From Nitrospirota bacterium (lineage in GTDB: Bacteria; Nitrospirota; UBA9217): a stretch of 64,000 nucleotides of DNA. The notes beneath the pieces were generated by a model. That model made no database searches, was not told the DNA's origin, and worked only from the letters and a program-made list of their open reading frames with translations. Position 1 is the first letter of the stretch. The number at the start of each line of letters is the position of its first letter. The translations under genes and the position numbers were made by a program. Where the stretch lies: assembly GCA_963790205.1 (NCBI GenBank), contig CAWBNQ010000011.1, positions 123,304 to 187,303 on the forward strand. Direction: 5' to 3'. This document shows positions 17,235 to 47,405 of this stretch, piece after piece.

Positions 17235-17978
17235 ATGAGAAACATAAAAATCATCCTCGAATACGACGGCACAAACTATCACGGCTGGCAGTCGCAGGCC
17301 GGGACCGAAAATCCGACAATACAGGACGCGCTTGAACATGCCCTCAAAACACTCACGAAGGCAGATTGCCAAACCTCTTCTTCGGGACGTACGGATGCGG
17401 GTGTGCATGCTTTCGGACACGTGGCCAACTTCAAGACCGGGAGCAGCATCCCGGCTGAGGCCTGGGCGCCTGCGCTCAATCATCTGCTGCCCGGCGATAT
17501 CAGGGTGTTGGTATCCGGAGAGGCGCCTGAAGACTTCCATGCGCGCTACAGTGCACTGAGCAAGGTCTACAAATACCGTATATTGAACAGGCGCGCACCG
17601 ACCGCGTTGTATCGTAACTATGCCTGGCACATCAATGCGCCCCTGAATCTTAAGAAGATGAGGCAGGCTGCCTCTTGTCTTCCGGGCAAGCACGATTTTT
17701 CAACCTTTCGCAGTTCGGGGTGCGGGGCCAAAACACCGGTGAGGACGCTTAAAAGAGTAGAGATAGACAAAAGAGGAGACTTCATCGAGATATGGTTTGA
17801 AGCCGATTCTTTTCTTCAGTACATGGTGAGAAATATAACGGGAACGCTTGTCGAAGTAGGCCTCGGCAGATTTAGCCCTGATGACGTGGAGCGGATGCTC
17901 AAGTCTTGCGACCGGACCTTGGCAGGCCGCACAGCCCCGCCGCAGGGTCTCTACCTGGTGAAAGTGTATTACCCATGA
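17235..17978 (+). CDS. truA: tRNA pseudouridine(38-40) synthase
   Basis: YDGTNYHGWQ, GRTDAGVHA, FHARYSA, FLQYMVRNI, TAPPQGLYL. Confidence 0.95.
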   Translation: MRNIKIILEYDGTNYHGWQSQAGTENPTIQDALEHALKTLTKADCQTSSSGRTDAGVHAFGHVANFKTGSSIPAEAWAPALNHLLPGDIRVLVSGEAPEDFHARYSALSKVYKYRILNRRAPTALYRNYAWHINAPLNLKKMRQAASCLPGKHDFSTFRSSGCGAKTPVRTLKRVEIDKRGDFIEIWFEADSFLQYMVRNITGTLVEVGLGRFSPDDVERMLKSCDRTLAGRTAPPQGLYLVKVYYP

Positions 17979-18085
17979 AGGCGAATATCAACCAGGTGTT
18001 TGCAAATGTGTAAGCTCCAAAAGGGCAATTCTCATTTTTGCAAAAATCCGGTGTTAGTTTATTTCATAAAATCAAAAGGTTCTGG

Positions 18086-18102
18086 TTGGCATAGGAACTG
18101 CA
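18086..18102 (+). promoter_or_regulatory. Putative sigma54 (-24/-12) promoter
   Basis: TTGGCATAGGAACTGCA has exact GG-N10-GC spacing; an IHF-like AATCAAAAGGTT and AT-rich DNA lie just upstream. Confidence 0.6.
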
Positions 18103-18676
18103 TATCTTAAATACTTAAGTTATAATAATTATTCTTGTTCCAGACGAGGCTCTCTTTATGTATTATAATAGGGCTTAGGCCATGACGTATATCGGCGCCG
18201 AAGTCGGCCTCGTCATTTTCGCTTTTTTTTGGTTGCTGCCGAGCAGTTTCCTCCGGAGCAATTGGGCTCAACCTCGCAGGAAAAATGTCCGGCAGTCCTC
18301 TTGCACCCTTGCTCTTTCCCAAGATTATAGGAGCGTGTGGTGGGTTCTGATACCCCGCCTGCTGAAACTGCTCATCTTAATTCAAGGAAATAGTTTGACG
18401 GAACGTGGAAAATCGATGAGAATATGCCGGTGATGATAGGTGCTCGGGCCACAGCGTTTGCTCTGTCCCCGGGTGGTCGAAGCGTAACCGGCATAAGTTT
18501 GATGTTCAGAAATAAAGATTTTCGAAATACCGCATAAATACTATTGATCGAAAGGAGAAGGCCGACGGTAACACGTGTAATCAGGCGTCACTGGTATTAT
18601 CGTACTATGCAGCAAGGAACATCTTAAATCAGCTCCTGATTTCAAATTTTTAGAATTGAAAGGAGAACGTAAAAGT

Positions 18677-19582
18677 ATGAGGAATCGGTGGAACGCGCTA
18701 TCATTGCTGCTGTTGCTCGCCTTCGTGCTAGTCCCTGCTGCCGGTGCGGCACCCGACGCGGCGGCATGCCTCGGTTGTCACGGTTCAATGGAAGGGGCGG
18801 TGAATGTCAACCAGGAAAAATTTTCAAAGTCCGTCCATGGATCGTTTGATTGCGTCACGTGCCATATGACCCTGAAAGGAGCACAGCACGCCGGGCTCTC
18901 CGGCAAAGCCGACGCGGCGACCAGGGCACTGGCCTCCCAGATCTCCCCGAAGAGCAAAATCGATCCTATTGCGCAGGCGGCGTGCGCCCAATGCCATGGT
19001 GATATTTACCAGGCCTATAAGGGGAGCGTTCATGGGAAGAATGTCATCGATAAAAAATCGACCGACGGTCCTGTCTGTACGAGCTGTCACGGTTCCCCGC
19101 ACTATATTCAGCCGAAGGAGAGCAAGGAGTCGGCGGTAAACCACTTCAATGTCGTGCAGACCTGCGGCAAGTGCCATGAAGAAAAATTCATGTCCGAAAA
19201 ATACGGCTTCAGCGAACAAGTCATGGAACGGTACAAGGAAAGTTTCCACGGCAGAAAGCTGAAGCTCGGTCACCCCAACGCGCCTTCTTGCGTTGATTGT
19301 CACGGTTCCCATGATATCATAAGCGATAAGGACCCCGCTTCGCCGGTGGTAGGAGCGAATAAGATAAAGACCTGCAGCAAGTGCCACGCGGGAGCGAATG
19401 CGAAGTTTGTGGCAGCCATTACCCATCAGCCCCCTCGCCCGATAGCGCATTTCACGGAAATCGCCCTGATCATCCTCACGGTGAGTGTGTTTCTGTTCAT
19501 CTGCATCCATGTGCTTTTGGATATCTACGCGGACGTCCGCGACCGTTTGTTCAGGAAAGGAAAAGGAGGCAGCCATGAATAA
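18677..19582 (+). CDS. Periplasmic heptaheme cytochrome c with a C-terminal membrane helix
   Basis: Signal peptide; seven CxxCH (CLGCH, CVTCH, CAQCH, CTSCH, CGKCH, CVDCH, CSKCH); C-terminal TM helix containing His. Confidence 0.9.
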   Translation: MRNRWNALSLLLLLAFVLVPAAGAAPDAAACLGCHGSMEGAVNVNQEKFSKSVHGSFDCVTCHMTLKGAQHAGLSGKADAATRALASQISPKSKIDPIAQAACAQCHGDIYQAYKGSVHGKNVIDKKSTDGPVCTSCHGSPHYIQPKESKESAVNHFNVVQTCGKCHEEKFMSEKYGFSEQVMERYKESFHGRKLKLGHPNAPSCVDCHGSHDIISDKDPASPVVGANKIKTCSKCHAGANAKFVAAITHQPPRPIAHFTEIALIILTVSVFLFICIHVLLDIYADVRDRLFRKGKGGSHE

Positions 19583-20282
19583 TAAAAATATTCCCACGGA
19601 GATAGAGAGGTTCGACCTTTCTGCGAGGATCCAGCACGTCATCATGTTCACGACGTTTTTGCTCCTGTCCTTCACCGGATGGGGACTCAAGTATGCGTAT
19701 CAGGATCCGGCGAGCGCCTGGATACGGTTCTGGGGCGGCGCGAAGACGGCGGGGATCATACACCGGGCGGCGGGAATCACGATGCTCCTGGATTTCATCT
19801 ACCATCAGTTCTACCTCATCAACCAGGCACGCAAGGGAGGATTTAGGCTGAGCCTTGTTCCCATGCCCAAGGACGTCGTCGATGCGTTCCACAATTTCAT
19901 GTACTTCTTCGGCTTCAGGAAGGAAAAACCGTACTTCGGAAAGTTCAACTACATGCAGAAGTTCGACTACTGGGCGGTATATTGGGGCATGTTCATCATC
20001 GGAGCTTCCGGGTTCTTCCTGGCTTTTCCGGTGACGGTTTCATCGCTTTTTCCCATGTGGTCTATCCAATGGATCTGGGACGTCATCTTTGTCATGCACA
20101 GCGATGAGGCGCTTCTTGCCATCGTATTCATTCTCATTTTCCATTTCTACAACGAACACCTGCGGTCAGAGGTGTTCCCGATGAACTGGATGTGGCTGAC
20201 CGGGAAGATGTCTATTGAACAGCTCAAACATCATCATCCTGCCGAATACGATTATCTTTACGGAGACAAAAAGAAGAAGTAG
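19575..20282 (+). CDS. Membrane cytochrome b (FdnI/hydrogenase cytochrome b-like)
   Basis: RIQH, IHRAAG, KFNYMQKFDYWAV.WG, MHSDEALLA, HFYNEH; SD AGGAGG. Confidence 0.85.
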   Translation: MNNKNIPTEIERFDLSARIQHVIMFTTFLLLSFTGWGLKYAYQDPASAWIRFWGGAKTAGIIHRAAGITMLLDFIYHQFYLINQARKGGFRLSLVPMPKDVVDAFHNFMYFFGFRKEKPYFGKFNYMQKFDYWAVYWGMFIIGASGFFLAFPVTVSSLFPMWSIQWIWDVIFVMHSDEALLAIVFILIFHFYNEHLRSEVFPMNWMWLTGKMSIEQLKHHHPAEYDYLYGDKKKK

Positions 20283-20294
20283 CGTGACGATGAG

Positions 20295-20328
20295 AAAAAA
20301 ACGGCGGCCGGTGAGGCCGCCGTTTTTT
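20295..20328. terminator. Bidirectional rho-independent terminator
   Basis: A-tract CGGCGGCC-GGTGA-GGCCGCCG T-tract between convergent genes. Confidence 0.85.
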
Positions 20329-20348
20329 ATTGAGGGAGAGGGGAACCG

Positions 20349-21011
20349 TCACGCCAGTTTCTCGAGGGTTCCTTGTTTCATCCTGAACCGCGTAACGGCC
20401 CGAAGGGCAATCTCGGAGCTGTGGGTCACCATGATCATCGTGACCTTCTTCTCGCGGTTGATCTTCTCGAAGAAGGCCATGATCTCGGCCTCCGTTTCCT
20501 CATCGAGGTCACCGGTGGGCTCGTCAGCCAGGATGATCTCGGGTTCGTGAATGAACGCACGGGCAATCGCCACCCGCTGCTGCTCGCCGCCGGAGAGCTC
20601 GGAAGGGTACCGGTCAGCCTTATCTCCGAGTCCGACGAGACGAAGCAGCCGGACCGCGTCGTCCCTCTTTTTTTTGCCGCCGAACACGGTCGGCAGGAGG
20701 ACGTTCTCGGTCGCGGTGAGGGTAGGGATGAGGCTGGCGAACTGATATATAAAACCGATCTTCTCGTTCCTCAGTTTCGAGAGTCCTCTGTCGTCATAGC
20801 TCCGGATGTCGGTCCCATCAAGGATGACCGTGCCCGTATCAGGCCTGGCGATGCCTCCGACAAGGCTCAAAAACGTGCTCTTGCCGGACCCCGAGTGCCC
20901 GACGATCGAGACGAACTTCCCCTGCTCGATGGAGAGATCGACAGGCTGAAGCGCCTGTATGGTTTTTCCGGAGACGGTGTAGCTCTTCGATAATCCTTTC
21001 AGCTCAATCAT
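20349..21011 (-). CDS. ABC transporter ATPase (LolD/MacB type)
   Basis: MIELKGLSK, GHSGSGKST, LSGGEQQRVAIA, ADEPTGDLD, VTH. True start 21011; the longer call to 21491 overlaps other genes. Confidence 0.9.
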   Translation of the reverse strand: MIELKGLSKSYTVSGKTIQALQPVDLSIEQGKFVSIVGHSGSGKSTFLSLVGGIARPDTGTVILDGTDIRSYDDRGLSKLRNEKIGFIYQFASLIPTLTATENVLLPTVFGGKKKRDDAVRLLRLVGLGDKADRYPSELSGGEQQRVAIARAFIHEPEIILADEPTGDLDEETEAEIMAFFEKINREKKVTMIMVTHSSEIALRAVTRFRMKQGTLEKLA

Positions 21012-21412
21012 GAATTTCCCTTCTTTCTGGTTGATATCACGGTCCCGACAGCGGCTCCGCACATAATGACCGCAGAAACAACGGCGACGAACCGGATGCC
21101 CGGCACCATGCCGTAATTGCACGGCATCCGGCTGCTGCGGCAGTAGCCGAACTTGTCCGGGAGCAGGAACGCGACGATATATAAAACAATCGACACCGCC
21201 GCGCAGATGATATCGACCGGCCTCCATTTTAAAAAAGCCGTCGCGCTCCCGAGCACGATAAGCAGCGCGCCGACCACGTACTCCGCACGCGCCGTGTCCG
21301 AGCAGTGCATCGCGGGGAATCCCAGGTAGCCGCAGGCGGGAAGAATGAATCGCGGCACCAGAATGAAGAGGAGGCCGCTTACGACGGCGGTTATGAAGAT
21401 CAGTTTTTTCAT
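21008..21412 (-). CDS. DUF4418-like Cys-rich membrane protein
   Basis: Four TM segments with periplasmic PAC...MHC and GYC....MPC motifs. Confidence 0.75.
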   Translation of the reverse strand: MKKLIFITAVVSGLLFILVPRFILPACGYLGFPAMHCSDTARAEYVVGALLIVLGSATAFLKWRPVDIICAAVSIVLYIVAFLLPDKFGYCRSSRMPCNYGMVPGIRFVAVVSAVIMCGAAVGTVISTRKKGNS

Positions 21413-21813
21413 TTGAGCGCTGTTGCAGTTCCGTCGAAATCCATTGCCGCGCCGTACTCCAAAGCCTTGCCTTTATCCGCAAAGGGTGCAATACCCCACC
21501 CCATGGGAGTTTTGAATTTTTTTTCGGAATGCACGTAGTATGCTTTATGGGCGTCGATCCATTCGCCGGTGTTGTAGTCTTTGACTTCTACGCGAGTCGC
21601 GGACGGCTTTTTTCTTTTCAGATAGGAAAAGAGGTCCCCGATATCGCAGAAATAGAGCGTCTGATCGCCCTGGATGATCCGAGACGTGAATTTTGCGGCA
21701 ACATCGCAGGTCATGCCGCATTCAGAGCAATTGACCGTCTCCGCAAACGCTGGTGACGCAATTACGGAAAACCATATCAGGACAACCAGGGCTTTTTTCG
21801 TTACTATGGGCAT
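21409..21813 (-). CDS. NosL-family periplasmic metal chaperone
   Basis: Signal peptide; CSECGM, YFCDIGD, WIDAHKAYYV, TPMGWGIAPF. Confidence 0.85.
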   Translation of the reverse strand: MPIVTKKALVVLIWFSVIASPAFAETVNCSECGMTCDVAAKFTSRIIQGDQTLYFCDIGDLFSYLKRKKPSATRVEVKDYNTGEWIDAHKAYYVHSEKKFKTPMGWGIAPFADKGKALEYGAAMDFDGTATALK

Positions 21814-21845
21814 AGTGCGCTTCCCTTGCAAATTACAAAAAATAT

Positions 21846-22445
21846 TTACTTCCCCTTTGCATCGATTTCCTTCTTGAGGGCCTGAGCGGTCCCTTCATCG
21901 AATTTTTTGATTTCGTTGTACTGCTTCAGGGCTTCCGCGCGCCGCCCCTTGTTGAGCAATACGACGCCGAGGTTATAGCGGGCTGTTGCGTAATGCGGAC
22001 GCAGGGAGATGGCTTTTTCGAGCGCGGCGATCTGTTCATTTGTTTTTCCCACCATGCCGTATGACGCCGCGAGGTTATTGTAAATCACCGGGTTCTTTGG
22101 GGAATATTTCCCCGCCTTCAGGAAAGGCTTTATCGCTTCCCGGTACTTGCCGAGCCTGTTATAGGCCGTGCCAAGTTGCTCATAGGCGTAGCCGATTTCT
22201 TTCGGTTTGAGGGCGATGACTTTCTTGAGGGCGTCGACCTCCTCCGGGTACATACCGGCCCGGTCGTAGAGATCCGCAAGGTGAAACCATGCGTCCGTGT
22301 CGCGGGGATTGCTTGCGACCCGTTCCCTGAGCACCTGGATATCGGATTTTTGCGGGGCGATCTGGACGGAAGGTCTTTCGTTATCCTTGGAGCAAGCGGT
22401 GAGCATCGTCAGGATTATCAACAGTATGGAAATCCTCCATCGCAT
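21846..22445 (-). CDS. TPR lipoprotein
   Basis: Lipobox LTAC; four to five TPR units. Confidence 0.8.
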   Translation of the reverse strand: MRWRISILLIILTMLTACSKDNERPSVQIAPQKSDIQVLRERVASNPRDTDAWFHLADLYDRAGMYPEEVDALKKVIALKPKEIGYAYEQLGTAYNRLGKYREAIKPFLKAGKYSPKNPVIYNNLAASYGMVGKTNEQIAALEKAISLRPHYATARYNLGVVLLNKGRRAEALKQYNEIKKFDEGTAQALKKEIDAKGK

Positions 22446-23641
22446 TATTCTTCTCTCCTTATGGCTTCATACGGTTCCATCTTTAAAATGGCAAGGGACG
22501 GCAGGAGGGCGGAAAGCAGACCGGTGGCAAGGGAAAAAATTACCGCGCCGACGATCAGAACGGTCAGATCCGCGGGCGAAGGGAACAGATACGGGAGTTT
22601 TAAATAGTGCAACATAAGGTCTTTAAAGCTCATGAGCAATCCGAAACCGAGAACGACACCGGTTGCGCCGCCGCCTGCCGACAACAGCGATGCCTCAGAC
22701 AGAAGGATTGCGGAAATATGGTTTTTATTCGCGCCCATCGCCCGGAGGAGGCCGATTTCACGACGCCGTTCGTTTACGATCATATAAAACGCGAAAGCCA
22801 TGATTAAAAGAACGATAAACCAGAGGACGATGCTGATGATGATTATCGCGCGAATAAGACCGGAGAGCTGATTTCTCACCGTGCTGATGACCCTGTCGGA
22901 CACCAGGGCCTTTACGCCGCTGATGGCATATTCGATCCTGACGGCTACCCGGTCCGGCGTAATATCGTCGTCCACCTGCACCAGGACCGTTGAGATTTTG
23001 TCCCTTCCGATCTCAATGGGTTGAAGAGCTTTCGTCTTCGATTCCTCGGCCATCTTATAGGCCGCATCGAGGCTCATGAAAACCGCACGATCGAAAAAGT
23101 CCATGCCGGTCGGTTCCATGGTCCCCGCGACCCTGAAATTGGTACCGAAAAAGGGGATCATGTCCCCGACGATGACGGGGACCGACCGGCCGGTGATGAT
23201 CTCGTTGATCCCCAGTTTTCGATTAAGGTTTTTTTCGAGCCAGGGCTTAACCGTAAAGTCGGTTTCCGGGTCGAAGGCCACCAGGAATACGTCTACATTG
23301 AAGCAGCAGGAAAAACTCGTCGGTTTAATAAAGAGCTGGGGCGTGGCGGCCTTTACCCCCTCAACATGTCTAACACGATCGAGGACCGATCTGTCCATCA
23401 GAAACTGGGTTGGCTCTCCCGAGAGGAGCGCAGACTTCGCCTTGGCTTCAGCGCTCGCGGGGACCACGAGAATATCGGCGCCGAGACGATAGGTCCCGAT
23501 TTTAAGCGCATTATTTATGCTTTTCAGGAAGAGGGTCGCCGTAAACAATGTACACGACACGACGGCGACGATGGCAAATAAAAGCCATGTCCTTGTCAGC
23601 TTTCTCTTCAGGTTCTTAATTGCAACATAGGGAATGTTCAT
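22445..23641 (-). CDS. FtsX/MacB-type ABC permease with a periplasmic Cys-Cys motif
   Basis: LGADILVVP, ATPQLFI.PTSFSCCF, FDPETDFTVKPWL, ERRREIGLLRAMGA; 1+3 TM topology. Confidence 0.9.
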   Translation of the reverse strand: MNIPYVAIKNLKRKLTRTWLLFAIVAVVSCTLFTATLFLKSINNALKIGTYRLGADILVVPASAEAKAKSALLSGEPTQFLMDRSVLDRVRHVEGVKAATPQLFIKPTSFSCCFNVDVFLVAFDPETDFTVKPWLEKNLNRKLGINEIITGRSVPVIVGDMIPFFGTNFRVAGTMEPTGMDFFDRAVFMSLDAAYKMAEESKTKALQPIEIGRDKISTVLVQVDDDITPDRVAVRIEYAISGVKALVSDRVISTVRNQLSGLIRAIIIISIVLWFIVLLIMAFAFYMIVNERRREIGLLRAMGANKNHISAILLSEASLLSAGGGATGVVLGFGLLMSFKDLMLHYLKLPYLFPSPADLTVLIVGAVIFSLATGLLSALLPSLAILKMEPYEAIRREE

Positions 23642-23730
23642 AATGGCAGTGATTTTTCCTTCGGAGCGGTAAAATTAGGAACGTAGGAACGAAATTATTA
23701 TACCACAAAGCAGGCGGGCAAGTAAAGAGT

Positions 23731-23756
23731 CCGGAGGGCGGGCTGCCGCCCTCCGG
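23731..23756 (-). terminator. GC hairpin after the beta-propeller gene, followed by a probable internal extended -10 (TGGTATAAT at 23697-23705)
   Basis: CCGGAGGGCGG-GCTG-CCGCCCTCCGG. Confidence 0.55.
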
Positions 23757-23773
23757 CGTAACTGAAGAAACGG

Positions 23774-24907
23774 TTATTTCTTCCAATCTACGGTAATGCC
23801 GCAGAGCAGAGGGGATCCTGAATCGATCGCAACCTTTATTCCGTTAGCATTATGGCATGATGCGCACAGGGATACTTCTTCGACGATGGTGTCATCTTTC
23901 ATATTCATGACCGCCAGCAAGCTGTCGTCGCTGCCGTACGATCTGGATGCGAGAAGCGCATACCCGTTCTTGGTGAAGGCGAAGTCATGAGGACTGAGGT
24001 TGTTCGGGAGCACAATGCGCTTCACAATGGAGTCCGTCTTTGTGCTGATGATGATCACCTGGTGCGCCTTGGTGCCGCCTTTCAGCACACTCGCGGTACC
24101 GGCCGTACCGGTCGGATTCAGCTCGAATTCATTCGGAGCGCTCACCCAGAGATATTTGCCGTCCGGCGTCATGCGATCCTGATGGATGAAGGTCATCTCG
24201 GGGCTCGTGATCTCCTTAATTTTCTTCTTCGTCTTCCAGTCATACACGTATACCTTGCCTGCCGGCATGTCGGTGATGTATGCTTTTTTGTCGTTCTTGG
24301 TCCACTGAATGCCGCAGACCGCCATACCAACCGGCATTTTGTCCACGAGCTTGAGCTTTTCCGGGTTCCACACATAGACGTTTCCGTCGGTCATGTCTTC
24401 GAAATAGACGTTGCCGTCCGGACCGGTGATGGCTCCGCAGAACTTCTCGCCGACCTTAAAGGGACCTTCCTTTTTAGCGGCCCTGCCGTTCGCATCGAGC
24501 TCGACCTTGTACACGTTTCCGGCCAGCGTGCCGGCGATCAGGACTTTCTTCCCATGTTCCATCATGAGGGTCTGTCCGTGAGAACCGCCGGACTTTTTGG
24601 CTTGTTCAAAGCTGATGCCCGCGACCTTGCCTTCCATCTCGGAGCCGGCCTCGGTAAGGACGATTCTGTCTTTTTCAACATCGGTCGGCGACTTCATGGT
24701 CCTCAGATCGAGGATCGCCAGGTGCCCGCCGTGGCCGGCAATGTATGCTATCCCGTCAAAAGTCACGGGTTTGGCCTCTTTCACCACTTTTGCATCGACG
24801 ACGGTCTCAGATGCGGCATTGACTGACGAGCGCAGGGACATGACCATGAAAAGAGCCAAGACGCACACTCCAACGAGACTGATGACTACACTTTTTTTGA
24901 AACTCAT
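23774..24907 (-). CDS. Secreted YVTN/YncE-like beta-propeller with a single C-terminal CxxCH
   Basis: N-terminal signal/anchor; blade repeats VG...CG....PDG, VG..VCGIQW, IHQ...TPDG, PHDFAF; CASCH. Confidence 0.8.
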   Translation of the reverse strand: MSFKKSVVISLVGVCVLALFMVMSLRSSVNAASETVVDAKVVKEAKPVTFDGIAYIAGHGGHLAILDLRTMKSPTDVEKDRIVLTEAGSEMEGKVAGISFEQAKKSGGSHGQTLMMEHGKKVLIAGTLAGNVYKVELDANGRAAKKEGPFKVGEKFCGAITGPDGNVYFEDMTDGNVYVWNPEKLKLVDKMPVGMAVCGIQWTKNDKKAYITDMPAGKVYVYDWKTKKKIKEITSPEMTFIHQDRMTPDGKYLWVSAPNEFELNPTGTAGTASVLKGGTKAHQVIIISTKTDSIVKRIVLPNNLSPHDFAFTKNGYALLASRSYGSDDSLLAVMNMKDDTIVEEVSLCASCHNANGIKVAIDSGSPLLCGITVDWKK

Positions 24908-25347
24908 AGTTCCTCCCCTTTAATGAAAGTTGAGCACGATGCGTGCTCAGATTACTCTCTGGATCTCATGCTGACATGTATTCAAATAAGAATCTACTTC
25001 GTTCTTTATCTGGCCACCTCCTTCTCCGCTTCACACGGAAAAAATGAGTACCCATGGCTTCATTTTTCGAGGCTTCACATTTAAAGAATCAATGGCATAA
25101 TCAATATAGTATAAGTGCACGCAGGGTGTCAACTTCAAATTGTAATTTTACACGTTGCGCTTGTTGCAACTTGCTGTAACAATCAAAAATAATTATGCAT
25201 TAATTATGCCGTGGTGAATAGGTGTCAGCGCAAGGATTAAGAAGTGGATCAGGATAGGTTAGCTCAGGCCATACCGTGTAAGCCTCCTTGTGCAACTGTC
25301 GGAGATGCGCGCCTGTATATGCCTGGGGAAGGGGAGAATATGTTGAG

Positions 25348-25389
25348 AAAAAAAAGGCATCCCCCCTGAAAGTTGAGAGGATGCCTTTT
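25348..25389 (-). terminator. rpmB terminator
   Basis: AAAGGCATCC...GGATGCCTTT stem with a U-tract on the minus strand. Confidence 0.7.
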
Positions 25390-25396
25390 AACTGTT

Positions 25397-25591
25397 TTAG
25401 CTGACTTTCTTTACTTTGCCCGAGCGTATACAGCGCGTGCATGCCTTTATCCGGACATGGGACCCGTGAGGTCCTACAGCCTTTACACTCTGGATGTTCG
25501 GCTTCGATACTTTCTTTGTTTTGTTATTGGCATGGCTCACCTGGTTACCGCTGAGCTTGCCCTTGCCGCAAATTTCACATGTTCCCGCCAC
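25397..25591 (-). CDS. rpmB: 50S ribosomal protein L28 (Zn-ribbon form)
   Basis: CEICGK...[11 protein letters not shown]....PNIQ...CTRCIRSG; GTG start with SD GGAGG. Confidence 0.95.
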
Positions 25592-25702
25592 AGTACCGTC
25601 CTCCGCTTAGTTAAAATTAGGATTAACATTTAAAAGCAGGCGTACGATATCATAAGAACAGGCGGTTTGCAAGGGGAAAATGTGGACAGCCTATTTAAAT
25701 AC

Positions 25703-25746
25703 TTGACATCCTTTATCGATTGATATAATGTAAGTACATACTTACA
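25703..25746 (+). promoter_or_regulatory. sigma70 promoter with an overlapping palindromic operator (likely TetR autorepression)
   Basis: TTGACA (25703), TGaTATAAT (25721-25729), perfect palindrome TGTAAGTA-CA-TACTTACA (25729-25746). Confidence 0.8.
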
Positions 25747-25762
25747 AGGATTTCAACAAAGG

Positions 25763-26386
25763 ATGAAAACGTCAAATACAAGAGAGCAGCTCCTGAAAGC
25801 AACCCTGAAGCTCATTTCGGAGAAGGGGTATCTCGGCGCCACGACAAGGGAGATCGCCCATGAGGCGGGCGTGACCGAGCTGACCCTGTTTAGGCACTTC
25901 GGGTCGAAGGAGCATCTTTTCGAGGAACTGCTGAAGGGCTATACGTTCCTTCCGATGTTGAAAGAGCTCCTGCCCGAGTTGGAGGGGCTTTCCTGCAAAG
26001 AGGCCCTTACGCTGATCGCTACGCGGTTTCTCCTGTCGCTCAAAGAGCGGAAATCCATTGTCAAGATCATGTATTCCGAGGTTACCAGTTATCCCGAAAA
26101 GATCAGGGAAGTCTATAATAAAGTCATAGATGAGATGAGAATAACGCTTGCACGTTACTTCGAGTCCCAGCAGAATCGCGGCGACTTCAGAAAAAACATA
26201 TCGCCTGAAATGGCTGCCCGTGTGTTCCTGTGGATACTTTTTTCCTATTTCAGATCTGAAGAAATCATGCGTTCCGCAGGAATGAAGAAAAAAGTCATGG
26301 AAAAAGATGTGCGGGAGATCATTGATATTTTCATGCATGGAACATTGACGGATAACAGTAACCTGTTCAAGGGAGAAATGCCATGA
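25763..26386 (+). CDS. TetR/AcrR-family regulator
   Basis: KGYLGATTREIAHEAGVTELTLFRHFGSKE. Confidence 0.95.
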   Translation: MKTSNTREQLLKATLKLISEKGYLGATTREIAHEAGVTELTLFRHFGSKEHLFEELLKGYTFLPMLKELLPELEGLSCKEALTLIATRFLLSLKERKSIVKIMYSEVTSYPEKIREVYNKVIDEMRITLARYFESQQNRGDFRKNISPEMAARVFLWILFSYFRSEEIMRSAGMKKKVMEKDVREIIDIFMHGTLTDNSNLFKGEMP

Positions 26387-27948
26387 GGGGGAAGATCAAA
26401 CTGAAAATACGACGTATAGCGTTTGCAACTGTCTTCATCCTGGCCCTTACGATCGCTCGGTTTCATCTTGTATATGCGGAAGTGCCGGCGCAGGCGGATC
26501 AAAATACGACGGTCCCTGAGCAAAAGGCTGAAGAGCCGGCGCTGACGGACCGGAATGCAGCGGTTCCAGCGCAGAAGGCTGAGGCGCCGGCGCAGACGAA
26601 CCAGAAAACTCCGGCCCCGGAACAGAAGGCGGAAGGACCGGCACAGTCAATTCAAAATACGGCAGTCCCTGAGCAGTCGGAAAAGAGTGATCGTTCGGGT
26701 GAAGGCATGATCGCCAAGGATGAGATGCTGACGTTGAGCCGCTGTATCGAGATCGCACTCAAGAAAAACCCGACTATCGTTGCCGCGGTGAATACGGTGG
26801 GCGTCAATCGGAGCAGGGTGGGCGAAGCGCGTTCGGCCTATTACCCGCAGATCAGCGCCACGGGGGCTTACAGCAGGTCTAAATCCGTTACCGTACCGCA
26901 GGTCAATCCGTTCGCGGCAACTGCACCGGTCAATGAATCTTCCGGCACGGTTACACTTAACCAGAACATATATGATTTCGGCAGGACGTCGTCGTCGGTC
27001 GGCATCTCGAAGTATAATCTGGAGTCCTCCCGGTCAGACCTTTCTACAACGGAGGATGTCGCGATCCTGAGCGTAAAACAGGCGTATTACGGAGTGCTCC
27101 AAGCCAGGAGGAACCGGGACGTGGCAGCAGACGTCATAAAACAGTTTCAATTGCACCTGGACCAGGCGCAGGGTTTTTACGCCGTCGGCACGAATGCGAA
27201 AATCGATGTGATCAAGGCTGAAGTGGACCTGAGCAACGCGAAGCTCAGTCTCATCAATGCCGAGAATGCGCTTAAAATAGCATGGGTGACCCTGAACAAT
27301 GTCATGGGGGTCCCTGACGCGCCTGAGTACTCCATTGAGGATAACCTCTCATTCCAGAAGTATCCGATAACCCTGGAGGAAGCGACGGCGAAGGCGTTTG
27401 AGAACAGGCCGGACCTCAAGTCGATCGTCGCCAAAAGGCAGGCCGCAGAAGCGAATATCAGTTTGCAAAGATCAGGTTATTATCCCTTTTTATCGGGGAA
27501 CGCAAATTACACCAAGTCCGAATCAACGGTGGATATAGAACCCAGGACATCGAGCAATACCAATTCCTGGGATGTGGGTGTGGCACTTACCTTTCCCTTG
27601 TTCAATGGATTTTTAACCAGTCATCAGGTGGCCGAGGCAAAGTCCTCCTTCTACGTTCTTAAAGCGACTGAAGAAACGGTACGGCAGCAGATACTGCTCG
27701 ATGTCCGCCAGGCGTACTTGAACCTGCAGGCGGCGGAGGCCAGCATAGCGACCTCCGAACTTGCATCCAAGCAGGCCAAAGAGAACCTGGATCTTGCAAA
27801 CGGCAGATACTCGGCCGGAGTGGGAAGCCCTATCGAGGTTTCCGATGCGTTCGCCACGTATGTCACCGCCCAGGCGAACTATACGAGCGCGCTGGCTAAT
27901 TACAAAATCGCCCAGGCGAGTATTGAAAAGGCGATGGGTGCACGGTAG
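26383..27948 (+). CDS. TolC-family outer membrane efflux channel
   Basis: LTLSRCIEIALKKNP, ARSAYYP, NRPDL, LTFPLFNG, RYSAGVG; two OEP halves. Confidence 0.9.
   Translation: MRGKIKLKIRRIAFATVFILALTIARFHLVYAEVPAQADQNTTVPEQKAEEPALTDRNAAVPAQKAEAPAQTNQKTPAPEQKAEGPAQSIQNTAVPEQSEKSDRSGEGMIAKDEMLTLSRCIEIALKKNPTIVAAVNTVGVNRSRVGEARSAYYPQISATGAYSRSKSVTVPQVNPFAATAPVNESSGTVTLNQNIYDFGRTSSSVGISKYNLESSRSDLSTTEDVAILSVKQAYYGVLQARRNRDVAADVIKQFQLHLDQAQGFYAVGTNAKIDVIKAEVDLSNAKLSLINAENALKIAWVTLNNVMGVPDAPEYSIEDNLSFQKYPITLEEATAKAFENRPDLKSIVAKRQAAEANISLQRSGYYPFLSGNANYTKSESTVDIEPRTSSNTNSWDVGVALTFPLFNGFLTSHQVAEAKSSFYVLKATEETVRQQILLDVRQAYLNLQAAEASIATSELASKQAKENLDLANGRYSAGVGSPIEVSDAFATYVTAQANYTSALANYKIAQASIEKAMGAR
26485..26688 (+). 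repeat. Four degenerate 51-bp (17-aa) coding repeats in the TolC N-terminus
   Basis: PAQADQNTTVPEQKAEE / PALTDRNAAVPAQKAEA / PAQTNQKTPAPEQKAEG / PAQSIQNTAVPEQSEKS. Confidence 0.85.
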
Positions 27949-28056
27949 TATAAAAATAAATTTGTCGGCAAAAGTGTTATAATATTTTTGCTTAAAAAGC
28001 ATATGAGCTTGAGAAAACATGATTTAAAAATGAACAACGAAAGGCTTACAAGAGAC

Positions 28057-29217
28057 ATGAAGTTCAGACCATTAAGCGGCATAGGCATATATGTAATCGT
28101 TGTTTTACTGCTCTCCCTTTTCATCAGCGCCTGCAATGACAGCAAGGCTAAACAGACGGGACAACGAGTTGTGCCGGTGAAAATAGGGGATGTGACGCAA
28201 CAAAACATACCCTTGCAGATCAATGCCATCGGCAATGTAGAAGCCTATAATACCGTTTCAGTGAAAGCCATGGTCGGCGGAGAAGTGACTGGAGTGCATT
28301 TTAAAGAAGGCCAGGACGTCAAGCAGGGAAGCCTGCTCTTCCAGATAGATCCTCGTCCCTACGATGCCGCGCTCAAGCAGGCCGAAGCACAGCTGGCACG
28401 GGACGTGGCGCAGGCAAAAAATGCCGAAGATCAGGCCAAGCGGTACGAAATCCTGGTCCAAAAAGACTACGTCTCCAGGGACCAATACGACCAGCTTCGC
28501 GCCAACGCCGATGCTTTGGCGGCCGCTGTCCAGGCGGACAAGGCCAATGTCGAGAACAGCCGTCTTCAACTGGCCTATTGCACCATCAGGTCGCCTATCG
28601 ACGGCCGCGTCGGAAGCGTTCTTATCAACAAGGGCAACGTAATTAAGGCAAACGATCTGGTGATGGTAACCATCAACAAGATAACGCCTATCTATGTGAC
28701 CTTTTCCATACCGGAACAGAACCTTTCAGATATAAAAAAGTATATGGCAGCAGGGTCACTGAAGGTGGAGGCCGTCGTTCCTGGAGACGAGAAACGACCG
28801 GCGCAAGGAGTGCTTACGTTTGTCAATAATGCGGTGGACACAACTACGGGGACCATCCAGCTCAAGGGCACGTTCGAGAACAGGGACAAGAGGCTCTGGC
28901 CCGGACAGTTCGTTAATGTGATAGTAACGCTCACGATCCAAAGGAACGCCGTGGTCATGCCGTCCGCGGCCTTGCAGACAGGACAACAAGGACAGTATGT
29001 CTTTGTTGTCAAACCAGACTTTACGGTCGAGTCCCGGCCCGTGACGGTCGCGCGGACGTTCGGCGACCTCTCCGTCGTCGCACAAGGGGTGAAGTCAGGA
29101 GAAAAAGTGGTGACCGACGGCCAGCTGCAGCTGATTCCCGGAACGCGAGTAGAACTTAAGGGAGACCAGATGCAACAAGAGGGAAATGACAAATTCCAAA
29201 CGCCCGATCACAAATAA
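28057..29217 (+). CDS. RND periplasmic adaptor (MdtA-like)
   Basis: Lipobox ISAC, FKEGQDVKQG.LLFQIDP, IRSPIDGRVG, VDTTTGTI, LWPGQFV. Start position uncertain. Confidence 0.9.
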   Translation: MKFRPLSGIGIYVIVVLLLSLFISACNDSKAKQTGQRVVPVKIGDVTQQNIPLQINAIGNVEAYNTVSVKAMVGGEVTGVHFKEGQDVKQGSLLFQIDPRPYDAALKQAEAQLARDVAQAKNAEDQAKRYEILVQKDYVSRDQYDQLRANADALAAAVQADKANVENSRLQLAYCTIRSPIDGRVGSVLINKGNVIKANDLVMVTINKITPIYVTFSIPEQNLSDIKKYMAAGSLKVEAVVPGDEKRPAQGVLTFVNNAVDTTTGTIQLKGTFENRDKRLWPGQFVNVIVTLTIQRNAVVMPSAALQTGQQGQYVFVVKPDFTVESRPVTVARTFGDLSVVAQGVKSGEKVVTDGQLQLIPGTRVELKGDQMQQEGNDKFQTPDHK

Positions 29218-29316
29218 ATGCGTAATGTCGATGAATCAATGATTAAATATTCGATCAGCGGCGTACTGCATTTATTTGATTTTTGATGCGTAAGAATTGG
29301 AGCTTGAACTAAGACT

Positions 29317-32300
29317 ATGAACTTAGCGGAACCCTTCATACGCAGGCCGGTCATGACGACGCTGGTCATGTCTGCGATTCTGCTGTTCGGTATCATGGCA
29401 TACCGGCTGCTTCCGGTGAGCGATCTGCCGAACGTCGATTTCCCGACCATCCTGGTGAACGCAAGTCTTCCCGGAGGGAGCCCGGAGACCATGGCCTCGG
29501 CAGTGGCGACGCCGCTGGAGCAGCAGTTCTCGACCATAGCAGGCCTCGACAACATGACGTCCACGAGCGCGCTCGGGTCGACTCAGATAACGCTCCAGTT
29601 CAACCTGAGCCGGAACATCGACGGCGCGGCCCAGGATGTCCAAGCCATGATCGCAAAGGCCGCGCCTCTTCTTCCCCCGGACATGCCGACTCCGCCGACC
29701 TATCAAAAGGTCAACCCAGCGGATCAGCCGATTCTCTATCTCGCGATTAATTCTCCGACGCTCCAGCTTTCGGCCGTGGACGAATACGCCGAGACGACGA
29801 TGTCCCAGCGGATATCGATGATAAGCGGCGTGGCCCAGGTGCAGGTGTTCGGTTCCCAGAAGTACGCCGTGCGCGCCCAGCTCGACCCGCGCGCTCTTGC
29901 TTCACGCGGCATAGGGATCGATGATGTATCGAAAGCGGTCGCGAGCGGGAACGTGAATCTGCCCACGGGGACCCTGCAGGGTTCCTCGAAGTCATTTACC
30001 ATATTAGCGAGCGGACAGCTCATGGATGCGGCGGCCTACCGTCCTCTCATCGTGGCGTACCGCAACGGCAATCCCGTCAGGCTCCAGGAACTCGGCAGGG
30101 TAATTGACAGCGTGGAGAACGACAAGATCGCGAGTTGGTTCAACACGAGCACCAGGAGCACAAGGGCCGTGATTCTGGCGATCCAGCGTCAGCCCGGCAC
30201 CAATACCGTTGAAGTGGTCGACTCCATCAAGAAACTTCTGCCGACGTTCCGGTCAGAGATGCCGGCATCGGTGAATCTCGACGTCCTCTACGACCGGTCG
30301 CTGTCCATCAGGGATTCGGTGAATGACGTGAAGTTCACGCTGGGACTGGCAATCGTCCTCGTCGTGCTCGTCATCTTCCTGTTTTTGCGCAATCTCTCGG
30401 CAACGATCATCCCGAGCCTGGCGCTCCCCATGTCGATTATCGGCACATTCACGGTGATGTTCCTGCTCGGTTACAGCGTGGACAACCTTTCTCTCATGGC
30501 CATGATTCTCGCTGTCGGATTCGTGGTCGACGACGCCATTGTGATGCTCGAAAACATCGTGCGCCATATGGAGCAGGGAGAACCGGTGCTTCAGGCATCT
30601 CTCAACGGATCGAAAGAGATCGGTTTTACCATCCTTTCCATGACGTTCTCGCTGGTCGCGGTCTTTATCCCCGTGCTCTTCATGGGCGGAATTCTCGGCC
30701 GGCTGCTGCATGAATTCGCCGTGGTGATCAGCGTGGCCATCCTCGTGTCGGGAGTCGTGTCGCTTACGCTTACACCCATGCTCAGCAGCCGGTTTCTCCG
30801 GCCTCATGGCAAGGAACGACACGGCAGGCTTTATATGGCCCTGGAACATTTTTTCGACAATATGCTGAACAGCTACGAAACCAGCCTGCAGTGGGTGCTC
30901 GGACACCGCAGGATGATGCTTATCATCACCGCCGCGCTTTTCTTCGTGACGATTATCCTTTTTTACCTCATCCCAAAAGGATTTCTTCCTACCGAGGACA
31001 CGGGCCAGATCTTCGCCTTTACCGAGGCGCAGCAGGGAATTTCCTTTGACGACATGGCGAAACACCAGAAGGAGCTCATGGCAATCGTGGCCAAGGACCC
31101 GAACATTGACGAGTTCATGTCGAGCATCGGAGCCGGGGGGCCGAATGCAGCCGCCAACACCGGACGCATGTTCATCAGACTGAAGCCCCGTTCGGAACGC
31201 AAGCTCTCCGCCGACGAGATCATCCAGGAACTGCGGAAAAAAACGGCCGGCGTCATAGGCATCGGGATGTTCATGCAGAACCTGCCTCCCATCCGCATCG
31301 GCGGCACGCTCACCAAGAGCCAGTATCAGTACACGCTTCAGAGCCCGGATACGAACGAGCTGTATAAGGCCGCTCCCGCACTGGAAGCGAAGCTGCGCGC
31401 CATCCCGCAACTCCAGGATGTGACCAGCGATCTGCAGATCAAGAACCCGCAGGTGAGCCTTGACATAGACCGCGACAAGGCGGCTGCCCTGGGCGTCACG
31501 GCCCAGCAGATCGAAAACGCGCTCAGCACTGCTTATAGCACGCTCCAGGTATCGAACATCCTTGCGCCCACGAACCAGTACAAGGTCATCATGGAACTGT
31601 TACCCCAGTATCAGACGGATCCGTCCGCGCTCGCCATGCTGTATATCCGTTCGTCTTCGGGGGCTCTCGTGCCGCTTACGGTGGTTACCAAACCTTCCGT
31701 GGGCACGGGCCCGCTCCTCATCAACCACCTCGGCCAGCTCCCTGCCGTGACCCTTTCCTTTAACCTGAGGCCGGGCGTTTCGCTCAGCGAGGCCGTTGCC
31801 GCTGTTGACAAAGCCTCCAAGGCGACGCTGCCGGCTTCGATCACAACCAGTTTCCAGGGGACGGCGCAGGCATTCCAGTCGTCCACGCAGGGACTGTTCC
31901 TCCTCCTGATTTTGGCCGTCCTGGTCATCTACATCGTGCTCGGCATCCTGTATGAGAGCTTCATCCATCCGCTTACGATACTCTCCGGATTGCCTGCCGC
32001 AGGCGTGGGGGCGCTTGTGACGCTCCTCCTTTTCGGAAAGGAACTCAATATTTACGGTTATGTGGGGGTCATCATGCTCATAGGGATCGTGAAAAAGAAC
32101 GCCATCATGATGATCGACTTCGCGCTCGAGGCCGAACGCAAACACGGTAAAAGTCCCCAGGACGCAATCTACGAAGGGGCGGTCGTCCGTTTTCGCCCCA
32201 TTATGATGACCACCATGTCGGCCTTGATGGGGACACTCCCGATCGCGATCGGGTTCGGCGCCGGCGCCGAAGCGCGTCGGCCGCTGGGTCTTGCAGTGGT

Positions 32301-32460
32301 CGGGGGCCTGGTCTTTTCTCAATTGCTGACCCTCTATATTACGCCGGTTATCTATATATACCTGGATACGTTCCAGCAGAGATTCGGCAAACTTGCTCTT
32401 TTCCGCACCAGAGAGGAACAGGGGCCTAAGTCTCAGGAAAGAACACGTCCAGCACTATAG
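29317..32460 (+). CDS. RND efflux permease (MdtB/C-like)
   Basis: FIRRPVMTTL, VATPLE, KVNPAD, VVDDAIVMLEN, GIVKKNAIMM, RFRPIMMTT. Confidence 0.95.
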   Translation: MNLAEPFIRRPVMTTLVMSAILLFGIMAYRLLPVSDLPNVDFPTILVNASLPGGSPETMASAVATPLEQQFSTIAGLDNMTSTSALGSTQITLQFNLSRNIDGAAQDVQAMIAKAAPLLPPDMPTPPTYQKVNPADQPILYLAINSPTLQLSAVDEYAETTMSQRISMISGVAQVQVFGSQKYAVRAQLDPRALASRGIGIDDVSKAVASGNVNLPTGTLQGSSKSFTILASGQLMDAAAYRPLIVAYRNGNPVRLQELGRVIDSVENDKIASWFNTSTRSTRAVILAIQRQPGTNTVEVVDSIKKLLPTFRSEMPASVNLDVLYDRSLSIRDSVNDVKFTLGLAIVLVVLVIFLFLRNLSATIIPSLALPMSIIGTFTVMFLLGYSVDNLSLMAMILAVGFVVDDAIVMLENIVRHMEQGEPVLQASLNGSKEIGFTILSMTFSLVAVFIPVLFMGGILGRLLHEFAVVISVAILVSGVVSLTLTPMLSSRFLRPHGKERHGRLYMALEHFFDNMLNSYETSLQWVLGHRRMMLIITAALFFVTIILFYLIPKGFLPTEDTGQIFAFTEAQQGISFDDMAKHQKELMAIVAKDPNIDEFMSSIGAGGPNAAANTGRMFIRLKPRSERKLSADEIIQELRKKTAGVIGIGMFMQNLPPIRIGGTLTKSQYQYTLQSPDTNELYKAAPALEAKLRAIPQLQDVTSDLQIKNPQVSLDIDRDKAAALGVTAQQIENALSTAYSTLQVSNILAPTNQYKVIMELLPQYQTDPSALAMLYIRSSSGALVPLTVVTKPSVGTGPLLINHLGQLPAVTLSFNLRPGVSLSEAVAAVDKASKATLPASITTSFQGTAQAFQSSTQGLFLLLILAVLVIYIVLGILYESFIHPLTILSGLPAAGVGALVTLLLFGKELNIYGYVGVIMLIGIVKKNAIMMIDFALEAERKHGKSPQDAIYEGAVVRFRPIMMTTMSALMGTLPIAIGFGAGAEARRPLGLAVVGGLVFSQLLTLYITPVIYIYLDTFQQRFGKLALFRTREEQGPKSQERTRPAL

Positions 32461-46335: not shown

Positions 46336-46653
46336 ATGATAGACCAGACACTTATTGCGAAAGCCACGAAACTTCTTCTCGATGCCGCACATCCGAACAA
46401 AATCATCCTGTTCGGGTCATACGGTCGGGGTGATGCAGTCGCGGAAAGTGATGTCGATCTCCTGGTGGTGGAAACCGATGTGCAGGACCGCGTCGCGGAA
46501 ATGACGCGATTGAATCGAGTGCTCAGTCCGCTGCGCATGTCGATCGACTTGCTGGTCGTGAGCCAGGAGACGTTCGACTACTGGGCAAGCACTCCGGGAA
46601 ACGTCTATTTTCAGGCAATCCAGGAAGGGAAGGTCCTGTATGAGGCAGCATGA
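46336..46653 (+). CDS. Minimal nucleotidyltransferase (MNT) antitoxin
   Basis: IILFGSYGRGD....SDVDLLVV, IDLLV, EGKVLYE. Confidence 0.9.
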   Translation: MIDQTLIAKATKLLLDAAHPNKIILFGSYGRGDAVAESDVDLLVVETDVQDRVAEMTRLNRVLSPLRMSIDLLVVSQETFDYWASTPGNVYFQAIQEGKVLYEAA

Positions 46654-47029
46654 ACAAGCCCTCCTCTTGTTGAAAAAAGCCGAAGAAGATATCACGCTCC
46701 TCTCGGAGGTTATCGCCTCGGAAAGGATCAGCAATGAAATATTCGGGTTTCATGCTCAACAAGCAGCGGAAAAATGTCTCAAGGCAATACTCTCGGAGTT
46801 GGACGTTCGCTTCGCGCGGACGCACAACCTGCGGCTGCTGATGGACCTTCTTGCCGATGCCGGCCATCCTCTTCCGTCCTCTCTCACCGATCTCGATCTT
46901 CTGACTCCCTACGGAACGTTGTTCCGGTACGAAGACATCCCCGCTCAAGTCGACCTTGACCGCAAAGAGATCTTTGAAATGATATCGGTTTTGCGATCAC
47001 TTGTTGAAAAGAAACTTAGCGCTCGTTGA
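46640..47029 (+). CDS. HEPN-domain protein paired with the MNT
   Basis: KAEED, GFHAQQAAEKCLKA, RTHNL, LTPY...RY; overlaps the MNT stop. Confidence 0.9.
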   Translation: MRQHEQALLLLKKAEEDITLLSEVIASERISNEIFGFHAQQAAEKCLKAILSELDVRFARTHNLRLLMDLLADAGHPLPSSLTDLDLLTPYGTLFRYEDIPAQVDLDRKEIFEMISVLRSLVEKKLSAR

Positions 47030-47285
47030 AAGCACTGTGGGCCGCCCAGAAATTCAGAAATTTGTTGGGGCGCTTCATGGGAAAAGAGCAAAGAAGGGCG
47101 TCTTCATCACAACAGGAAGGTTTTCCGAGGATGCCGTGAAGTACGTCGAGAGCATCGATCCCAAGGTGATCCTGATCGATGGACAAGCGCTTGCGGAACT
47201 GATGATCGATTATGGATTGGGGACGACTTCCACGGCGATGTATGAGATAAGAAGGGTGGATTCGGATTACTTTGCGGAAGAATGA
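47028..47285 (+). pseudogene. mrr: Mrr restriction endonuclease C-terminal fragment
   Basis: TVGRPEIQKFVGAL....A.KGVFITT..FS..A.......KVILIDG..LAELMIDY.LG......YEI.RVDSDYF; the catalytic D...QAK segment is absent. Confidence 0.85.
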
Positions 47286-47405
47286 TTTGCACGCCCACGA
47301 GTAGAGTCAAATGAGAATATCGTAATGTAGTGGCTTTTGGGGAAAGCACAAAAAATTGGCAGAGCCCCGAAGTTCTTACTGGACTTAATAAATAGGAGGC
47401 GACGC

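Follow-up and report, generated by a model that had tools for sequence, protein, structure and literature searches.

Among the described periplasmic enzymes that resemble the system considered here, nitrous oxide reductase (NosZ) is a YVTN-type propeller of seven blades, whose seven hub histidines stand at the starts of the inner strands; an ATP-binding cassette (ABC) system, NosFY with NosD, is encoded beside it, and NosL nearby. The CXM motif of NosL is proposed to bind Cu(I) in the accessible part of PMC6530538, and a clade III, lactonase-type NosZ (L-NosZ; NF052460) is attributed to He et al. 2025 in PMC13477213. For thiocyanate dehydrogenase (TcDH), copper dependence and a Tat signal have been reported. 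The genes behind it code for ABC permease and ATPase proteins and for hypothetical proteins; in Thioalkalivibrio there are four such ABC subunits, with a function that "might be in copper acquisition" (PMC5328954, accessible part). Here we describe an operon in a 64,000-nucleotide stretch of Nitrospirota DNA (the window; GenBank assembly GCA_963790205.1, contig CAWBNQ010000011.1, positions 123,304 to 187,303 of the forward strand). Its first gene encodes a small secreted beta-propeller with one haem c motif and a putative hub ring of His and Cys residues; the others encode an FtsX/MacB-type (type VII) ABC permease and ATPase, a tetratricopeptide repeat (TPR) lipoprotein, a NosL-family protein and a DUF4418 membrane protein. 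The reading that we favour, and to which we give about an even chance, is that the propeller is a periplasmic haem c plus copper redox protein, served by the type VII ABC system as an assembly machine.

The likeness to NosZ lies in the periplasmic YVTN-type propeller with candidate ligands at inner-strand starts, in a NosL protein with a CXM motif nearby and in an ABC system encoded beside the enzyme; NosZ chains match the profile of the propeller family weakly (E ~3e-6). Unlike NosZ, the window propeller has six blades and 3 His + 3 Cys at the presumed hub, it carries a CxxCH haem motif in place of a CuA domain, and its permease is of the FtsX/MacB type with a Cys-Cys pair. Neither a cupredoxin nor a COX2 family occurs among its Pfam matches, and no NosZ model among its NCBIfam matches at E <= 0.01. 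In the source genome none of the NosZ models reaches its cut-off (TIGR04246 gives 24 bits, on another contig), and PF18764 (nos_propeller) is unmatched, as is its control. The initial annotation had noted that the enzyme lacks a CuA domain and the window nosZ and nosD; nosZ was not found in the source genome either, nosD not having been searched for. Membership in NosZ clades I and II was rejected, in the light of the missing model match and CuA domain, the six blades and the 3 His + 3 Cys.

L-NosZ is the best NCBIfam match of the propeller (35.3 bits versus a cut-off of 700, at model positions 94-232), and hhalign (96%) aligns FIH242 to IHH and PH307D to PHGHD. L-NosZ also occurs in Nitrospirota, in other families (0/63 in the source family), but its open reading frames encode 581-601 aa, versus 377 aa for the window propeller. 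Three L-NosZ loci (L100, L101 and L103) have small cytochrome c genes on their flanks, together with what by inspection is a cytochrome b6-like gene; no NosL, NosD or FtsX gene was seen in their lists of open reading frames. Membership of the propeller in this family was considered and rejected on the score given above, and no L-NosZ match in the source genome reaches the 700-bit cut-off.

The parallel with TcDH, which is seven-bladed, concerns the transporter. On a plasmid of Methylocella tundrae, the gene for a 614-aa TcDH homologue (E 1e-157 to solved thiocyanate dehydrogenase chains) directly precedes one for a permease that can be aligned with the window permease over the full length (31% identity, hhalign E 3e-47), and an ATPase gene comes next. 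The M. tundrae permease has Gly-His at the position of the Cys-Cys pair, the TcDH homologue lacks CxxCH, and the signal of TcDH is of the Tat type rather than Sec. Taken with the accessible part of PMC5328954, this gene order provides a precedent for an FtsX-type ABC system encoded behind a propeller enzyme with reported copper dependence. The propeller itself matches solved TcDH-type chains partially, at 29 bits (hhalign to the homologue, 87.5% over 139 columns), and its identification as thiocyanate dehydrogenase by sequence was rejected, the match being weak and partial.

A haem c also accompanies a YVTN-type propeller in cytochrome cd1, NirN and NirF, in which a separate cytochrome c domain is joined to an eight-bladed propeller holding haem d1, unlike the single CxxCH inside a six-bladed propeller found here. 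NirN and NirF match the family profile and rank 2-3 in Foldseek; the Cytochrom_D1 model gave no match to the propeller at E <= 0.01.

The propeller and its hub residues

All of the gene positions and propeller motifs quoted in the initial annotation were borne out when the open reading frames of the window were read. By inspection, the N-terminus of the propeller is a Sec-type signal peptide, without twin arginines. The motifs are AGHGGH (residues 57-62), GSHGQ (108-112), KFCGA (155-159), AVCGI (196-200), FIHQD (240-244), SPHDF (305-309), CASCH (348-352) and LLCGI (367-371), and the protein ends 8 residues past C369. CASCH is its single CxxCH (C348, C351 and H352), and a CxxCH in an exported protein would make the propeller a c-type cytochrome. 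Attachment of c-type haem occurs in the periplasm. Given Sec export, haem attachment and any metal insertion must both take place there, and from what is generally known of Tat and Sec export, a haem protein that leaves by the Sec route is unlikely to hold an Fe-S cluster.

Folding from the single sequence was poor (predicted local distance difference test, pLDDT, 55.6), and an AlphaFold model built on an alignment of 40 sequences was used instead (pLDDT 89.6; predicted template-modelling score 0.86). In this model, 24 main strands form six four-stranded blades, the last of which is closed by the C-terminal strand 371-375 plus N-terminal strands. The innermost strands begin at 109, 156, 197, 244, 305 and 371, and H110, C157, C198, H242, H307 and C369 stand at these starts or at most 2 residues before them; they would therefore take an equivalent place in each blade. 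The initial annotation had deduced such a common position for 3 His and 3 Cys from the repeats and had proposed structure prediction as a check; the confident six-bladed model, with the ring residues at inner-strand starts, agrees with it. The H59-H62 loop joins strands 2 and 3 of blade 6, and C348-x-x-C351-H352 is carried on a loop of 24 residues. By propeller topology, the inner-strand starts and both of these loops would be on the same face, where the central channel opens.

In a structural search with the model, the best matches were YWTD, NHL and SGL propellers, which we take to be six-bladed, among them 1npe (Z 24.9, root-mean-square deviation 2.8 Å, 253 residues aligned). SGL lactonases matched at Z ~20-21 and NosZ (2iwf) lower (Z 19.5, 4.2 Å), and none of the matches stood out as a specific relative. 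Foldseek against the PDB returned generic propellers alone (template-modelling score ~0.5). The Pfam and NCBIfam matches are likewise weak and at the level of single repeats; the SMP-30 model PF08450 gives 27.7 bits versus a gathering threshold of 26.3, covering model positions 113-188 of 246. For NosZ, L-NosZ, TcDH, cd1 and YncE, all curated models remain far below their cut-offs, and the propeller has no close orthologue among characterised enzymes, in line with the earlier proposal of a different enzyme.

A word-indexed search with the propeller found 546 proteins. The best 120 of these are 63-100% identical to it and are named generically (YncE, cytochrome D1 domain, SMP-30/gluconolactonase) or unnamed, with no functional name attached to the family among them. 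An exhaustive search of 1.84 billion representatives yielded just 14 with E <= 1e-30, and a plasmid search gave a single match, a cd1-domain protein at 23% identity. No paper describing the family was found in a literature search, most subscription journals being outside its reach.

The initial annotation had proposed conservation of the ligands in homologues as a check, and such conservation holds in part. The His and Cys residues named earlier are all invariant across 31 family members, but with a mean column identity of 73% invariance within this set says little. In 40 sequences, reaching down to 23% identity, no variation is seen at C198, H242, D308, C348, C351 or H352, while H62, C157, H307 and C369 are each kept in at least 90%. 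A remote comparison set of 67 representatives (280-520 aa) contains 14 with an aligned CxxCH, which is absent from the other 53. Among the 14, H62, H242 and D308 are present in all, C198 in 13 and C157 in 12. None of the 53 has more than four His or Cys at the six hub positions, and 28 have 0 or 1, so that the ring is not generic to such propellers. Four haem-less relatives (P0151, P0170, P0221 and P0223) retain C157, C198, H242 and H307, which favours a hub site independent of the haem. Overall, a core persists to 22-47% identity while H110 and H59 vary in distant relatives, and the pattern of loss indicates that the full six-residue ring is typical of the main family and of the subfamilies closest to it. 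Judged from the alignments, what is kept most deeply is a pair of Cys with one or two His at the presumed hub, together with H62, D308 and the haem motif.

Matches to the propeller were found in 65 of 301 Nitrospirota genomes sampled and on many metagenome contigs from wetland, peat and sediment, and the propeller is present in 33 of the 64 genomes of the source taxonomic family. A metagenome scan aimed at distant relatives mostly returned the main family; archaeal proteins (P0128, P0140 and P0143) are among the relatives known. A search of sequencing runs likewise led to peat metagenomes (2 DNA runs with 0.79 of the words, small shares elsewhere), and no RNA run was listed with the sequence. 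The hosts include metagenome-assembled genomes (MAGs) labelled Candidatus Sulfobium, Dissulfurispiraceae and Desulfobulbia, presumably sulfur-cycling lineages.

The operon and its partner proteins

Family matches confirmed the initial assignment of the genes downstream of the propeller as a Cys-Cys permease, a TPR lipoprotein, a NosL-like protein, a DUF4418-like protein and an ATPase. The permease passes the cut-offs of both the FtsX C-terminal and the MacB periplasmic core domain and, together with its LolD-like ATPase, resembles the type VII systems MacB, LolCDE and FtsEX. It differs from these in a vicinal Cys-Cys pair and in its linkage to a haem propeller and copper chaperones. Neither ABC gene of the operon has a curated equivalog over its cut-off (the ATPase gives 233.6 bits with the LolD model, below the cut-off of 307.75), and the operon contains no gene for a membrane-fusion or outer-membrane partner of the kind that serves MacB-type efflux.

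The Cys-Cys pair (C112-C113) lies in the periplasmic domain of the permease and is kept in 69 of 70 sequences. It is retained in the permeases of remote operons and in paralogous permeases at 33-50% identity, and several Met of the same domain are conserved throughout. Conserved Cys also occur in the other partners: C18 of the TPR lipoprotein is kept in 96% of sequences, and the DUF4418 protein, single-copy in the source genome, has four invariant Cys (C27, C37, C91 and C98). The NosL protein has a signal peptide that by inspection ends ...SPAFA/ETVNC, without a lipobox, and carries the CXM motif as C38-G-M40, plus C35 and M110; C35, C38 and M40 are kept in 23/23 sequences.

For the neighbourhood counts, 63 of 80 genome loci, those with at least 3.8 kb downstream of the propeller gene, were used. 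Permease, TPR lipoprotein and ATPase follow the propeller in 58 of them (59 if L030, where the permease was detected by tblastn alone, is counted), and the TPR lipoprotein was found in 59. Among metagenome loci with at least 1.5 kb downstream, 45 of 47 have the permease, and in a subfamily at 38% identity the order propeller-permease-ATPase is kept in 4 of 6 loci. Four propeller genes lack an adjacent transporter; all are in MAGs holding a second copy, which in 3 of the 4 adjoins the transporter. In the cases that could be checked, the propeller never occurs without the transporter in the same MAG, while the transporter does occur without the propeller, an asymmetry that fits a client and its machine.

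Three unrelated copper-chaperone families, NosL, YtkA-like and PCuAC, are found in or beside these operons, the last two in lineages other than that of the window. A YtkA-like gene is in the operon at 3 loci and within 10 kb at 3 more. In one genome of the 38%-identity subfamily, genes for PCuAC (53.7 bits) and then NosL (101 bits) stand behind the ATPase gene, and this remote operon also has in its vicinity a second, paralogous pair of propeller and permease genes and a gene for a thioredoxin-like protein. The other operon neighbours are lineage-specific housekeeping genes. TusA-ThiF genes occur downstream in 4 loci (2 of them confirmed by Pfam), and a sulfur-transport gene adjoins one remote operon.

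In 56 of 59 related loci, the 44-nt hairpin of the spacer behind the propeller gene is stronger than those of equally long control stretches within the propeller and permease genes (medians, -24.0 kcal/mol in the spacer versus -14.4 and -16.0 kcal/mol in the controls). The hairpin may be an attenuator or a transcript stabiliser, and its presence throughout the family would permit the propeller to be made in excess over the transporter.

Several unusual arrangements were recorded. A supercluster in genome G263 (L197 5129-16845) contains two propeller/Cys-Cys permease pairs, an extra FtsX permease-ATPase pair, PCuAC, NosL and a thioredoxin/Sco-like protein; one of its permeases has an extra N-terminal membrane domain, and a YeeE-type sulfur-transport gene is adjacent. 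At L153 (3811-9056), two propeller genes, 57% identical to that of the window, flank a permease-TPR-ATPase unit, one on each strand. The source genome also has a second NosL locus (contig C5:339000-358500; L200 5864-10813), in which genes for a thioredoxin-like protein, Pfam-less proteins of 545 aa and 331 aa, another thioredoxin-like protein, NosL and an FtrD-like membrane protein follow one another. As a different cluster, it was rejected as a part of the propeller system.

Proposed assembly route and rival explanations

In the mechanism that we propose, the propeller would be exported unfolded by Sec and would receive both cofactors in the periplasm: one covalent haem c on the long loop before the last blade, and a metal, most likely copper, in a thiolate/imidazole site at the mouth of the central channel. 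This hub site would be formed by C157, C198, H242 and H307, assisted by H62, D308, C369, H110, M172 and M214. Hydrolysis of cytoplasmic ATP by the FtsX/MacB-type pair would move the periplasmic domain of the permease, whose Cys-Cys would hand Cu(I), supplied by NosL, a YtkA-like protein or PCuAC where encoded, to the apo-propeller. The TPR lipoprotein and the DUF4418 protein would act as helpers, and the whole relay would be the counterpart of NosDFY-NosL for NosZ. The haem would take its electrons from periplasmic cytochromes. We infer each of these elements: the metal at the hub, its identity as copper, the relay and redox catalysis. The copper-haem reading is favoured because Sec export, the haem motif and soft ligands (Cys, His and Met) on one face are combined with a Cys-Cys pair on a mobile domain, three copper-chaperone families and the parallel with TcDH. 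A more far-reaching version is possible but rather doubtful, namely that the propeller family forms an oxidoreductase class of its own in the periplasm, respiratory or detoxifying, with haem c and a copper-thiolate/imidazole centre on the six-bladed hub, dependent for assembly on a type VII ABC system that serves TcDH and other clients too, and possibly acting on a small N-oxide or sulfur substrate in anoxic peat and sediment.

A number of observations weigh against the copper-haem reading. The clustering of H110, C157, C198, H242, H307 and C369 at the hub is predicted from strand positions in the model and textbook topology, and C157 and C198 could form a disulfide. Among the 14 remote representatives with CxxCH, H110 is kept in 4, H307 in 8 and C369 in 8, and the loops of the supposed active face do not differ in conservation from those of the opposite face (p = 0.37). 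The role of the ABC genes beside TcDH is a suggestion alone in the accessible part of PMC5328954. The initial annotation had taken NosL, the ABC genes and DUF4418 together as maturation genes; the Cys-Cys permease, TPR lipoprotein and ATPase are indeed constant, but the other two are optional, NosL being in the operon at 19 of the 63 loci (missing from 44) and DUF4418 at 16 (missing from 47). A NosL or YtkA-like gene lies within 10 kb of 27 of the 58 core operons, so that most are without a chaperone. Finally, two genomes of the source family, G024 and G111 (100% and 96% complete), have an operon of Cys-Cys permease, NosL, DUF4418 and ATPase genes, followed by a gene for a lipoprotein with a CAP/SCP domain, and no propeller of this superfamily. 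The ABC machine is thus not exclusive to the propeller and has other uses or clients, of which the CAP/SCP lipoprotein may be one.

These propeller-less operons also speak for a different view of the locus as a copper-handling system, in which the permease, ATPase, NosL and DUF4418 protein traffic or remove periplasmic Cu(I) and the propeller is a copper-binding or redox accessory, for example a cupric reductase acting through its haem or a Cu(I) buffer. The Cys-Cys and several periplasmic Met conserved everywhere in the permease, the association with three chaperone families and the patchy distribution of the propeller (33/64 family genomes), as for an accessory trait, would all suit such a system. 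We nevertheless consider it unlikely: the propeller is the first and most conserved gene of the unit, the conserved hairpin sets it apart in a manner suiting an abundant main product, the operon supplies neither of the partners of MacB-type efflux named above, and most of the operons lack a chaperone gene. The last point can equally be read in favour of an enzyme that uses haem alone and acts on sulfur compounds or N-oxides. A hub Cys or His would then be the sixth haem ligand, the other Cys would form a disulfide or persulfide, the ABC system would move substrate or product or activate the enzyme mechanically, and the copper chaperones would be bystanders. His/Cys ligation of haem is known from thiosulfate- or sulfur-oxidising cytochromes; CxxCH, H62, C198, H242 and D308 are the deepest conserved set, and the host labels named above, the TusA-ThiF genes and the sulfur-transport gene would also be in accord with this explanation. 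It is made improbable by the haem-less relatives that retain C157, C198, H242 and H307, by the recurrence of three unrelated copper-chaperone families, and by the fact that, among the permeases found beside characterised enzyme families, the nearest stands behind a homologue of TcDH, a copper enzyme.

Much less likely still is a non-catalytic, YncE-like propeller, serving as a periplasmic binding or scaffold partner of an ABC exporter and using its haem for stability or sensing. The sources do label the family YncE or SMP-30-like, and its family matches are limited to generic propeller repeats, but membership in YncE (NF052280) was rejected at 20.4 bits versus a cut-off of 400. Moreover, the extreme identity within the family and its invariant CxxCH and hub His/Cys, not seen in generic relatives, are hard to reconcile with such a role.

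Locus layout, neighbouring genes and implications

The six minus-strand genes of the operon run from 24907 down to 20349. A spacer of 132 nt separates the propeller and permease genes, and the last five genes are tightly packed: the TPR lipoprotein start overlaps the permease stop, the DUF4418 gene overlaps the NosL and ATPase genes by 4 nt each (three junctions overlapping by 1-4 nt in all), and 14 nt lie between the TPR lipoprotein and NosL genes. This packing fits one translationally coupled unit. An Rfam scan of window positions 17500-26000 gave no match at E <= 0.1.

Table 1. Features of the propeller locus in the window and of the related operons that lack the propeller
Feature	Position	Strand	Remarks
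Propeller gene; secreted six-bladed beta-propeller (model), 377 aa	23774-24907	minus	First of six genes
FtsX/MacB-type (type VII) ABC permease, 398 aa	22445-23641	minus	FtsX 77.8 bits; MacB_PCD 33.9 bits
TPR lipoprotein, 199 aa	21846-22445	minus	Lipobox LTAC (by inspection)
NosL-family protein, 140 aa	21409-21831	minus	Pfam NosL 46.2 bits (cut-off 24)
DUF4418 membrane protein, 134 aa	21008-21412	minus	Pfam 66.4 bits (cut-off 27)
ABC ATPase, LolD/MacB-like, 220 aa	20349-21011	minus	ABC_tran 119.6 bits
Cytochrome c, membrane-anchored, seven CxxCH	18656-19582	plus	Neighbour; membership in the system not supported
Cytochrome b, Ni_hydr_CYTB / formate dehydrogenase gamma type	19575-20282	plus	39.7 bits (cut-off 30.1); neighbour
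G+C-rich hairpin, 11 pairs (10 G-C)	23731-23756	minus	Within propeller-permease spacer
Sigma-70-like promoter match, 11/12	25103-25132	minus	~195 nt upstream of propeller start; consensus match alone
Permease (Cys-Cys)-NosL-DUF4418-ATPase-CAP/SCP lipoprotein operon	L201 7703-11112; L202 7612-10952		Genomes G024, G111

The cytochrome c and b genes on the plus strand converge on the operon, and the initial annotation had linked them to it, from their adjacency, as an electron module. The pair adjoins the propeller operon in 15 of the 63 genome loci, all from one lineage. The same loci keep truA on one side, mostly along with LivG/F-like ATPase genes, and the TetR-RND genes on the other, provided that the contig extends so far. 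In the source family, 28 of the 33 genomes with the propeller have an orthologue of the cytochrome c (E < 1e-100), and so do 20 of the 31 without it, which marks the pair as resident in the lineage and not as a dedicated partner. On this co-occurrence the proposed module was rejected. At a metagenome locus of another lineage, a gene for a multihaem cytochrome c7-like protein was seen after the ATPase gene, on the same strand (L130 12846-13781).

On the other side of the propeller gene, and divergent from it, inspection of the open reading frames revealed a TetR regulator and an RND efflux operon (outer-membrane factor, adaptor and pump; window 25763-32460), whose synteny with the propeller is confined to the window's own lineage. 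A stretch of low G+C content (0.41-0.48) at 46500-51350 carries defence-type genes, which encode a HEPN protein, an 800-aa STAND NTPase (Schlafen AlbA_2 + NB-ARC + TPR) and an Eco57I-type methylase.

If the copper-haem reading is true, anaerobic Nitrospirota and some Desulfobacterota carry a haem and copper enzyme that is missing from current pathway maps. The FtsX-type ABC system would then constitute a second, unrecognised route for the assembly of periplasmic copper centres, beside NosDFY, and this route would be relevant to thiocyanate dehydrogenase as well. Being small and very highly conserved, the propeller lends itself to expression, spectroscopy and structure determination.

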